64,000 bases of DNA from the sequence record OP558005.1. One strand, written 5' to 3'. The notes beneath the pieces are model-generated. The model was not told the origin of the DNA. It made no database searches and saw only the letters and a list, made by a program, of their open reading frames with translations. This document shows positions 5,398 to 46,140 of this stretch, in pieces (position 1 is the first letter of the stretch; each line of letters opens with the position of its first letter). Origin of the DNA: Klebsiella phage vB_KpnM_VPA32. Made by a program: the position numbers and the translations under genes.

Positions 5398-5724
5398 TTA
5401 AACGGTTTTTGTACCAGCATTGATGATTTCCCATACTTGTTGGCGTGTAGTCTGCCAGTTAACACGGATGATTTCGTCATTATAAGGTTGTTTGTAAATG
5501 TCACGCAGTTTACAGAGAGCGTACTTATATGCTTCGAAATTATTTTCGAGGACTGCGCCAGCTGCATGGTCATTCAGTCGCTTAATTTCACGACGATTCT
5601 TTTTGAAGATTTTAGTCGCCACAGCATTTGCGCGTCTCTGGCTTTCTTCTTCAATCAAACGTTTAATACGTTCTTCTTCGTTATCGTCGATTTGTTCTAC
5701 GCTGTCAATATTACGTTCGTTCAT
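5398..5724 (-). CDS. hypothetical protein
   Basis: 108 aa ORF; overlaps a second same-strand ORF 5223-5573 in another frame. Confidence 0.35.
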   Translation of the reverse strand: MNERNIDSVEQIDDNEEERIKRLIEEESQRRANAVATKIFKKNRREIKRLNDHAAGAVLENNFEAYKYALCKLRDIYKQPYNDEIIRVNWQTTRQQVWEIINAGTKTV

Positions 5725-5729
5725 TTGAC

Positions 5730-5984
5730 CTACTTACTTTTGTAATCAATTGTTATGCTAAAATCATTTTCTCCTAGATTATAACTGTGAGTTATCTCAG
5801 CATTATCAGAAGTGAATTCAGCGTCATGTGGGTTCTTGGGGTCGATGTGAATGTCCAAATCTAATACCTCCCTCATATACATTTTAAGCAAATAAGGGAT
5901 AGCATCGTAATCGGGCACTTCTTCCAGGAAACCTGCGAGGTTAATCGTCAGCCTCATATAAAAAATCCAAGTTCGGACCTTCAT
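5730..5984 (-). CDS. hypothetical protein
   Basis: 84 aa acidic ORF. Confidence 0.35.
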
Positions 5985-41269: not shown

Positions 41270-41345
41270 TGGTGCCGGTTAACGGATTCGAACCGCTGAC
41301 CCTCTCATTACAAATGAGCTGCTCTACCAACTGAGCTAAACCGGC
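41270..41345 (-). tRNA. tRNA-Thr (anticodon TGT)
   Basis: GCCGGTT acceptor, GCTC..GAGC D-arm, anticodon loop TTTGTAA, T-arm GGTTCGAATCC, CCA encoded. Confidence 0.75.
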
Positions 41346-41437: not shown

Positions 41438-41522
41438 TGGAGCTAGGAGTGAGATTCGAACTCACGAAGGGATACCCGGCGGATTTGCAATCCGCTGCCT
41501 TTGGCCACTCAGCAACCCTAGC
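41438..41522 (-). tRNA. tRNA with Cys anticodon arm (GCA), U73, but type-II-like long variable arm
   Basis: anticodon stem-loop GCGGA-TTGCAAA-TCCGC identical to E. coli tRNA-Cys; 13-nt variable arm CGGGTATCCCTTC; D-arm GCT-GAGTGGCCAAA-GGC. Confidence 0.55.
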
Positions 41523-45444: not shown

Positions 45445-45687
45445 AAATTTACTTTCGTGAGTATGGGATTACCCTCAAGCCTTCCGGAAAGCTGAATAGG
45501 CGTTATTGGCTCTCATATACCCGTGCACAGATATAATCTTCATTAACGCAATAACTTCATCAATATACTCCGAAAGTAAACTTTCGGCGCCGTATTTAAT
45601 TTGGACTGTGTAGTTATCGTTGAGGGAACTCACAGACAGGGATTAAAGTGCCGACGACTTATCAGAACGTCTTCTGACTTCTACATT

Positions 45688-45772
45688 TGGCGGGCCGTGC
45701 AGGTATCGAACCTGCCTAGTCATTTCTGACACGGATTAACAGTCCGTCGCTTACCCTCTCAGCCAACGACCC
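45688..45772 (-). tRNA. tRNA with Asn anticodon arm (GTT), G73, but type-II-like long variable arm
   Basis: anticodon stem-loop CGGACTGTTAATCCG identical to E. coli tRNA-Asn; 15-nt variable arm GTCAGAAATGACTAG; D-arm GCT-GAGAGGGTA-AGC. Confidence 0.55.
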
Positions 45773-45778
45773 TGAATT

Positions 45779-45853
45779 TGGTTCTCCGTAAGAGAATTGA
45801 ACTCTTCTTTCCGACGTGAAAGGCCGGCGTCCTAACCGATAGACGAACGGAGA
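45779..45853 (-). tRNA. tRNA-Glu (anticodon TTC)
   Basis: loop CTTTCAC, T-arm AAGAGTTCAATTCTCTT. Confidence 0.7.
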
Positions 45854-46052: not shown

Positions 46053-46140
46053 TGGTGGGGAGTGATGGAGTCGAACCACCCGAGTCGCAATGACAACAGA
46101 TTTACAGTCTGCACCGCTACCTCTACGGAATTAACTCCCC
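46053..46140 (-). tRNA. tRNA-Tyr (anticodon GTA), long variable arm
   Basis: anticodon arm GCAGACTGTAAATCTGT as E. coli tRNA-Tyr; T-arm GGTGGTTCGACTCCATC. Confidence 0.7.

Follow-up and report, generated by a model that had tools for sequence, protein, structure and literature searches.

The tRNA-Asn gene and its variable arm

The stretch of DNA analyzed here (hereafter, the window) comprises 64,000 nucleotides (nt) of Klebsiella phage vB_KpnM_VPA32 (sequence record OP558005.1) and carries on its minus strand a cluster of transfer RNA (tRNA) genes, of which ARAGORN called 18 between positions 41270 and 46046 and Rfam recognized 19. Among them is a tRNA-Asn (gtt) gene of 85 nt (45688-45772, minus strand) that a preliminary description had singled out as an asparagine tRNA with a long, class II-type variable arm. 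ARAGORN, the Rfam tRNA family (RF00005) and the minimum free energy (MFE) fold agree on a complete tRNA-Asn(GUU) gene with an encoded CCA and a structured long variable arm, the predicted structure contains neither an intron nor a different anticodon, and the gene is 100% identical to sequences annotated as tRNA-Asn in many phage records.

Read from its 5′ end along the minus strand, the predicted molecule opens with the acceptor strand GGGUCGU (nt 1-7; 45766-45772), which pairs in the fold with ACGGCCC (nt 66-72; 45692-45698). The D-arm (45749-45763) has, in the ARAGORN bracket output, a stem of 3 base pairs (bp) and a 9-nt loop (GCU-GAGAGGGUA-AGC); it holds A14 and the GG of positions 18/19, and its would-be fourth stem pair is G13/A22. 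Its description as Tyr/Ser-like thus held only loosely, the loop measuring 9 nt versus 11 nt in the co-resident Ser, Leu and 85-nt Cys tRNAs and in Escherichia coli tRNA-Tyr. Sequence and fold define the anticodon arm ACGGA-CUGUUAA-UCCGU (45731-45747), in which ARAGORN placed the anticodon GUU (45738-45740; aac on the plus strand), specific for the Asn codons AAC and AAU. The proposed identity of this arm with that of E. coli tRNA-Asn stands for its 15-nt core, CGGACUGUUAAUCCG, which is the same in E. coli asnT. The variable arm follows at 45716-45730. Rather than the 4-5 nt loop of class I tRNAs, the MFE fold contains here a helix-forming region of 15 nt (GUCA-GAAA-UGAC plus the linker UAG), that is, a 4-bp helix with a GAAA tetraloop, no 5′ linker and a 3-nt 3′ linker whose last G stands at position 48. 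The T-arm GCAGG-UUCGAUA-CCUGC (45699-45715) was assigned from the fold and from an alignment of relatives (A2, below), whereas the discriminator G73 (45691) and the CCA 3′ end (45688-45690) were read from the sequence, as were the total length of 85 nt and the 15-nt length of the variable stem-loop given in the preliminary description.

The Rfam model scored the gene at 49.2 bits versus a gathering score of 29, with the full model (1-71) covered, and in its alignment the additional bases form an insertion within the variable region, supported by a high posterior probability. The MFE structure is a five-helix cloverleaf of -32.7 kcal/mol, with a z-score (-2.49) that is by itself modest. The conserved contacts and motifs of a tRNA (U8:A14, G18 G19, 15:48, G53:C61 and a UUCRA T-loop) are all present, and positions 8-9 read U8 G9.

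Evidence that the extra helix is a selected structure came from a gapless alignment of 12 diverse long-arm tRNAs-Asn built without structure (A2). We used A2 instead of a MAFFT alignment of 24 heterogeneous sequences (A1), in which differences in D-loop length were shifted to the 5′ end and the acceptor stem was out of register; a covariance model derived from A2 (R1) matched every tRNA in the loci, with 450 hits, and the resulting alignment (A3), which mixes isotypes, was left unused. In A2, 98% of the cells fall in standard pairs, versus only 32-44% in slid registers, and double-sided (compensatory) changes affect 4/4 pairs of the variable helix and 7/7 pairs of the acceptor stem. None of 500 shuffles reached the observed percentage of paired cells, the number of double-sided changed cells or the covariation score. 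In a set of 78 distinct long-arm tRNAs-Asn, we counted 44 different variable stems, and the stem had at least 3 bp in 69 of them. These patterns indicate that the variable arm is under selection to remain a helix. The loop closing it is mostly a tetraloop and conforms to GNRA in 51 of the 78. We considered this loop as a special Asn signal and rejected the idea, because GNRA loops also close 61/102 Ser and 34/74 Leu arms and are, therefore, a generic feature of such arms.

The tertiary pairs of the same 78 sequences covary as well. With the last base of the variable region taken as position 48, the Levitt pair 15:48 is G:C in 32, A:U in 18 and G:G in 13 of them, and the pair 8:14 is U:A in 69 and G:C in 5. 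Given this covariation, a normal L-shape is expected, from which the arm would protrude. The G:C version of the pair 8:14 marks a subgroup of viral contigs (L095, L106, L119 and L084) whose long-arm tRNAs-Asn carry G8 and C14 in place of U8:A14.

Charging identity and origin

Asparagine identity in E. coli resides in the anticodon (G34, U35 and U36) and G73, a combination that can be transplanted into tRNA-Lys (PMC9976931). The discriminator is G73 in 76 of the 78 long-arm tRNAs-Asn; the anticodon GUU is nearly invariant in this set too, a regularity that is not independent because the search patterns fixed it. In contrast, A73 is the discriminator of every co-resident Tyr (17/17) and Leu (26/26) tRNA. 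Long-arm tRNAs for other amino acids in the viral loci carry U73 (Cys), G73 (Trp) and A73 (Thr). In E. coli, the discriminators of Trp and Thr tRNAs are G73 and A73, respectively. Hence, the discriminators of the long-arm Asn, Cys, Trp and Thr tRNAs match the synthetase of their own anticodon, which suggests that identity follows the anticodon rather than the arm. A73 is, furthermore, critical for tyrosylation, and G73 of tRNA-Ser acts as an antideterminant against the tyrosyl- and leucyl-tRNA synthetases (TyrRS and LeuRS) (PMC9976931).

For serine, identity rests on the presence and orientation of the long arm as well as on the pairs G1:C72 and G2:C71, both invariant in most bacterial tRNA-Ser (PMC9976931). 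In the long-arm Asn set, G1:C72 occurs in 29/78 and G2:C71 in 30/78 sequences; the window copy has both. The geometry of the arm also sets the two groups apart. The variable stem of the long-arm tRNAs-Asn is mostly 3-4 bp (2-6 overall) and is followed by a 3′ linker of 3-4 nt in 55/66, versus stems of 4-8 bp (mode 6) and linkers of 0-1 nt (45/52) in co-resident Ser tRNAs, and the D-loop is 7-11 nt (mode 9) in the Asn family versus a mode of 11 in Leu and Ser. A consistent reading of these features is that the design of the arm avoids attracting the seryl-tRNA synthetase (SerRS).

We consider it likely that the window gene encodes a functional phage tRNA-Asn that would be charged by the host asparaginyl-tRNA synthetase (AsnRS) via the anticodon and G73. 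Judging from the layout of the locus, the gene, which follows tRNA-Glu at a distance of 6 nt, would be transcribed on the minus strand together with the rest of the 19-gene tRNA cluster, and host tRNA-processing enzymes would cut the tRNA from a precursor in which the CCA is already encoded. The identity rules predict that host AsnRS would then read G34, U35, U36 and G73, and the charged molecule would decode AAC and AAU. The arm would be no identity element for AsnRS, which would tolerate it, and the short variable stem, the long 3′ linker and G73 would together fend off SerRS, TyrRS and LeuRS.

The closest functional reference for this reading is E. coli asnT, a class I tRNA of 76 nt that has the same anticodon (GUU), anticodon loop (CUGUUAA), 15-nt anticodon-arm core, G73 and encoded CCA. 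Presumably, both molecules are charged by the same synthetase and read the same codons. The E. coli gene differs in its 5-nt variable region, in its first pair (U1:A72 instead of G1:C72), in an unrelated acceptor stem and in a D-arm of 4 bp plus 8 nt (3 bp plus 9 nt in the window), with an overall identity of 64%.

Four points weigh against a functional, AsnRS-charged tRNA. The window copy combines G1:C72, G2:C71, C11:G24, G9 and G73, and thus overlaps with the serine identity set of E. coli, so that this particular copy may be charged to some extent by SerRS. Class II synthetases of the AspRS/AsnRS type approach the tRNA from the side of the variable loop, where a long arm could hinder AsnRS. 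The family statistics rest on sequences selected by pattern, with the anticodon arm fixed in two of three scans. And the folding z-score of the window copy is the modest one given above.

The overlap with serine identity is the basis of a different reading, in which the gene encodes a missense tRNA. SerRS would disregard the anticodon, recognize the arm, G73 and the first acceptor pairs, and attach serine, so that AAY codons would be partly read as serine. G73, G1:C72, G2:C71, C11:G24 and the helical variable arm of the window copy would all fit serylation, and bacterial tRNA-Ser, in which Ser(GCU) has an anticodon just one base off, shares with it the long arm, G73 and both acceptor pairs. 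Class II tRNAs with mismatched anticodons are also known from nematodes, whose nev-tRNAs combine a class II scaffold with Gly or Ile anticodons and, thus, like the phage molecules, a long arm with an anticodon other than Leu, Ser or Tyr (PMC3333845). The tRNA-Ser of the same phages have, however, a longer arm (mode 6 bp), a linker of 0-1 nt, an 11-nt D-loop and a dissimilar body (z = 0.02), and the window arm (4 bp plus 3 nt, versus 4-8 bp plus 0-1 nt) and D-loop (9 nt) do not resemble theirs. Nor are G1:C72 and G2:C71 kept in the family as G73 and the pattern-fixed GUU are. Nev-tRNAs are reportedly charged according to their scaffold, with leucine; in the phage long-arm tRNAs-Asn, unlike these nematode molecules, the discriminator follows the synthetase of the anticodon. 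Finally, proteome-wide replacement of Asn by Ser would harm the phage, yet the gene is 100% identical in more than 100 records. We regard serylation as improbable.

Still less credible is a tRNA-Tyr whose anticodon changed from GUA to GUU and that either remains a tyrosine acceptor or is decaying as a pseudogene. Bacterial tRNA-Tyr resembles the window tRNA in its length (85 nt, as in E. coli), its variable stem of 2-4 bp and the 2-3 unpaired bases before the T-stem, and the two anticodons are one base apart. It differs in A36 (U36 in the window), A73 (G73 in the window) and a longer D-loop, and there is no additional similarity in sequence: identity of the window tRNA to Tyr tRNAs amounts to 67-69%, near the 62-65% found for unrelated tRNAs, and the z-score of the family is about -0.1. 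Moreover, the window already has a tRNA-Tyr of its own (46056-46140), and the strong conservation of the tRNA-Asn gene argues against a pseudogene. We would hardly expect this explanation to be correct.

The preliminary description had gone further and proposed a class I anticodon on a Tyr/Ser class II scaffold. This part was not supported by the comparison: the discriminator is G73 and not A73, the body is no closer to Tyr, Ser or Leu tRNAs than to any other tRNA, and an 11-nt D-loop is lacking. GUU is one base away from both Tyr GUA and Ser GCU, and we therefore considered an origin by a shift of either anticodon; it was rejected because the acceptor stem, D-stem and T-arm had no excess similarity to those of co-resident Tyr, Ser and Leu tRNAs (z = -0.10 for Tyr, 0.02 for Ser(GCU), 0.07 for Ser(UGA) and about 0 for Leu). 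The bodies of long-arm tRNAs-Asn are slightly closer to those of co-resident short tRNAs-Asn (z = 0.53, n = 12). Long and short Asn bodies also interleave in clustering, a short one being the nearest neighbor of 16 of the 78 long ones. An Asn tRNA that gained an arm, possibly more than once, would explain the data no worse than a Tyr or Ser tRNA with a new anticodon, the sequences being too short to decide. Azoarcus sp. L1K30 (L163, 114-200) has an 87-nt tRNA-Asn with a body identical to that of a short tRNA-Asn (L242) and a variable region (taggtcATCCGtaggtc) that is an 11-nt tandem duplication of the normal loop. In this gene, tandem duplication is a simple route to a long variable region.

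Distribution among phages and in cellular genomes

The window region shares 98% identity with Enterobacter phage PG7 and 93% with CC31 (Karamvirus, Tevenvirinae), and the tRNA-Asn gene extends well beyond these relatives. A BLAST search with the 85-mer against 50,697 phage records returned 548 matches (80-100% identity), of which 148 were at 99% identity or higher, and copies at 100% identity are present in well over 100 records; the gene is, thus, neither a sequencing nor a reading artifact. Within Tevenvirinae, where homologs were to be looked for, the gene is carried by the Karamvirus phages CC31 and PG7, many Klebsiella phages of approximately 166 kb and the Moonvirus CF1 (85 nt). Marfavirus F48 (83 nt), three genera of T5-like Demerecviridae (83-86 nt) and a 381-kb jumbo phage (85 nt) are carriers too. 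Long-arm tRNAs-Asn were also found in other cultured phages (Erwinia phages, Klebsiella phages of approximately 142 kb and Cellulophaga phage phi4:1), and contigs of approximately 635 kb from uncultured phages match as well. The long-arm form is not in all Tevenvirinae, as the Tequatrovirus RB3 has an ordinary tRNA-Asn of 75 nt, and T5 itself has a different one of 78 nt with an aberrant anticodon stem.

Identity between the T4-like and the T5-like copies is 80-83%, and they have a common acceptor stem (GGGUCGU/ACGGCCC; T5-like Bas27 and EH3), which points to one lineage that moved between unrelated phage families. The window gene is a member of an old, horizontally spreading, virus-borne lineage of long-arm tRNAs-Asn. 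We also considered a mobile module that includes a neighboring small open reading frame (ORF) and set it aside, the 52-amino acid (aa) ORF of the window not being obviously similar, on visual comparison, to the 61-aa ORF that adjoins the T5-like copies. When 5,426 complete E. coli genomes were searched by BLAST with the 85-mer, nothing was returned; the gene is, hence, not in the prophages of that set.

The gene itself is not new, being already annotated in relatives: the CC31 record, for example, has an 82-nt tRNA-Asn at the homologous position. Labels for these genes are tRNA-Asn, tRNA-Asx, tRNA-OTHER (phi4:1), 'hypothetical protein' or none. The long-arm shape of tRNA-Asn is apparently undescribed; we could not find a description of it in a literature search that left out subscription-only papers, including the work of the 1980s on the sequencing of T5 tRNAs.

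To delimit the wider family, we relied on three pattern scans. The first, which required an Asn anticodon arm of the E. coli type together with 11-19 nt in the variable region, matched at least 120 stretches in viral contigs and 37 in the genomes of 185,579 bacterial and archaeal species (one genome each). The second kept the anticodon arm alone and left the variable region free; among the 120 viral matches listed, approximately 13 were long versus 97 short, so approximately 12% were long. The third left the anticodon stem free and added, in viral contigs, at least 82 further distinct long-arm tRNAs-Asn with many different anticodon stems. Altogether, we collected at least 189 distinct long-arm tRNAs-Asn of 81-91 nt from 229 loci.

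ARAGORN called long-arm Asn genes in 17 of the 37 cellular stretches, and 11 of these 17 lie within dense arrays of 7-36 tRNA genes. Long-arm tRNAs-Asn are, thus, enriched in viruses, and the cellular cases are mostly tied to tRNA arrays that resemble mobile elements. Chromosomes of Micromonospora/Verrucosispora (L131, L132, L136 and L160) are examples, with 89-90-nt long-arm tRNAs-Asn in arrays where 23-36 tRNA genes are packed into 8 kb. Tandem tRNA-like repeats account for several of the 37 cellular matches. In a Saprospiraceae metagenome-assembled genome (L139), two weak 87-nt repeats (29.7 bits) with the Asn anticodon arm lie in tandem (5469-5555 and 5725-5811) upstream of a normal 74-nt tRNA-Asn, and similar pattern matches occur in L129, L138, L142, L149 and L157.

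Candidate roles of the extra helix and genomic context

What the arm contributes to the phage is a matter of graded possibilities. That it is merely tolerated, and kept as a compact helix, has in our estimate somewhat less than an even chance. We give rather less weight, though still a good deal, to the arm presenting a different outline on the variable-loop face, by which host or phage factors would tell the phage tRNA-Asn from that of the host or by which the molecule would be protected; other causes take up the rest. A stronger version makes the arm adaptive and places the molecule in a distinct class of 'armed' phage tRNAs, mainly Asn and also Cys, Trp, Thr(UGU), Lys(UUU), Glu and Ile(UAU), in which the helix would block or mis-register defense nucleases or mark the tRNA as the phage's own. 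The host-like anticodon arm and G73 would still permit normal charging and modification. We hold this version to be unlikely.

The AriB nuclease of the PARIS defense system cuts tRNA-Lys(UUU) as well as tRNA-Thr(UGU) and, less efficiently, tRNA-Asn(GUU) between nt 40 and 41, and variants of the Lys, Thr and Asn tRNAs encoded by T5, which carry substitutions around the AriB site, jointly neutralize PARIS (PMC12409363, PMC10264068). The window tRNA-Asn retains the host sequence U36-A-A-U-C-C41 at this site, and its extra helix starts at nt 44, 3 nt downstream of the 40|41 cut. From this spacing, a steric or registration effect of the helix on AriB cutting appears plausible. Like the T5 escape tRNAs, the window tRNA is a phage copy of a defense-cut tRNA, altered relative to the host version with decoding kept; the T5 variants have changed bases in the anticodon stem-loop (PMC12409363, PMC10264068), the 78-nt Asn having an altered stem, whereas the window tRNA adds an arm. 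The short Asn tRNAs of RB3 and T5 are altered at positions 39-41; the long ones retain UCC. As a general rule, however, an exclusive choice between an altered stem and an added arm is contradicted by the Asn tRNAs of Det7-type Ackermannviridae, which match E. coli asnT at 91% identity across positions 6-62 and are apparently short with a host-like anticodon arm. The long-arm tRNAs with Lys(UUU), Thr(UGU) and Asn(GUU) anticodons correspond exactly to the tRNAs cut by AriB, although numbers are small (Lys 1/61, Thr 4/39).

Escherichia phage SelmaRatti (Bas34, MZ501103) seemed to offer a natural test of shielding, because it needs the T5 tRNA-Asn for rescue from PARIS despite having a tRNA-Asn of its own (PMC12409363). 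The 77-nt 'tRNA-Asn' annotated in that genome is a 5′-truncated call of a long-arm-type gene (L282, 12598-12681). We rejected Bas34 as a test because the acceptor strands of this gene (GGGUCGU versus ACCCGCU) have three mismatches and are unpaired, and ARAGORN does not call it. The gene is, on this evidence, probably a pseudogene, and a dead gene may explain the need for the T5 tRNA-Asn.

Two other explanations place the arm outside the translation machinery. One is a conflict at the level of DNA, in which an insertion in the variable region, the one part of a tRNA where it can be accommodated, breaks the site of a homing endonuclease within the tRNA gene and then persists because it is harmless. 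The preferred site of the T4 endonuclease SegB is, indeed, a 27-bp sequence inside the tRNA-Asn gene of T2L, and the nine SegB sites of the T2L cluster all map to 3′ ends of tRNA genes (PMC2330249). HNH endonuclease genes intersperse the tRNA region of T5, putative homing endonucleases are annotated around the corresponding region of Bas34, and the variable loop of the Azoarcus gene was lengthened by a simple 11-nt tandem duplication. The covarying helix of similar size in very distant phages is, however, left unexplained by this scenario, and no endonuclease was recognized beside the window Asn gene: the nine ORFs tested in or beside the tRNA cluster were each assigned to a PHROG whose function is unknown, and none was recognized as a tRNA-modifying or repair enzyme either. 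A site-breaking insertion seems to us about as doubtful as serylation, if marginally less so. The other explanation is a tRNA-like decoy or regulator that works outside translation, such as a competitive inhibitor of a tRNA-cleaving defense nuclease. Although E. coli tRNA-Asn(GUU) is a secondary target of AriB, the 7-bp acceptor stem, G73, CCA, canonical anticodon loop and T-loop, and tertiary pairs of the phage molecule are intact and conserved, and a pure decoy would need neither G73 nor CCA. We therefore think a decoy very improbable, and continue to favor a functional tRNA-Asn.

The nearest upstream neighbor of the tRNA-Asn gene is a tRNA-Glu(UUC) gene (45779-45853, minus strand; ARAGORN and Rfam) at 6 nt, and tRNA-Asp lies 243 nt downstream on the same strand. 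We found no convincing promoter or terminator flanking tRNA-Asn on its strand, consistent with processing from a long precursor. Asn codons (AAU and AAC) amount to 55 per 1000 (5.5%) in the long ORFs of the window, with AAU slightly favored, a demand that speaks for a functional tRNA-Asn. The 243-nt spacer between tRNA-Asn and tRNA-Asp (45445-45687, minus strand) contains only one ORF, of 52 aa with a GTG start, and folds with a z-score of -3.5 that none of 200 shuffles equaled; the spacer may encode a stable small RNA like rnaC/rnaD of T4 or the stable RNAs of T5. The tRNA-Tyr(GUA) gene (46056-46140, minus strand; 39.1 bits in Rfam) was missed by ARAGORN. With 85% identity to the tRNA-Tyr of T5 and 91% to that of RB3, it is, by sequence comparison, another tRNA common to T4-like and T5-like phages.

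The preliminary description had also noted a second long-arm tRNA in the cluster, and this one proved real: ARAGORN called an 85-nt tRNA-Cys(GCA) with a long variable arm and U73 at 41438-41522 (minus strand). Its variable region is CGGGUAUCCCUUC, its D-loop has 11 nt and its highest identity among the tRNAs compared is to E. coli tRNA-Tyr (73%). Of the 55 distinct Cys tRNAs from the viral loci, 9 are long-arm forms, and almost all of these carry U73. Phage tRNA clusters contain, in addition, helical long arms on tRNAs with other class I anticodons, those of Lys(UUU) (L140, 4198-4287), Thr(UGU) (L019, 4406-4492; L090, 8998-9084), Trp(CCA) (L127, 8187-8273; L054, 4387-4473) and Glu(UUC) (L096, 7898-7983). 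Viral contigs also carry tRNAs-Ile(UAU) (L114, 5943-6034; L140, 5454-5546; L025, 313-403; L028, 9355-9446), of which we counted 21 distinct sequences of 91-96 nt; these have a class I-like D-arm and a variable region of approximately 20 nt with a CAGAUAA or AGAUUA-like motif.

In bacteria, long variable arms have been stated to be limited to tRNA-Leu, tRNA-Ser, tRNA-Tyr and tRNA-Sec (PMC7609411). The phage genes described here make asparagine a fourth amino acid with a large and structurally coherent long-arm family, one that is common to unrelated phage families and almost confined to viruses and to tRNA arrays resembling mobile elements, and their inconsistent labels across records make them relevant to genome annotation. 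If AsnRS charges the long-arm tRNA-Asn, the variable-loop face would be free for engineering, as in aptamer-tagged or orthogonal tRNAs. If, on the other hand, the arm protects against tRNA-cleaving immunity, it would represent a new, shape-based mechanism of evasion beside the substitutions in the anticodon loop, and it would help explain why phages carry copies of tRNAs that their host already has.

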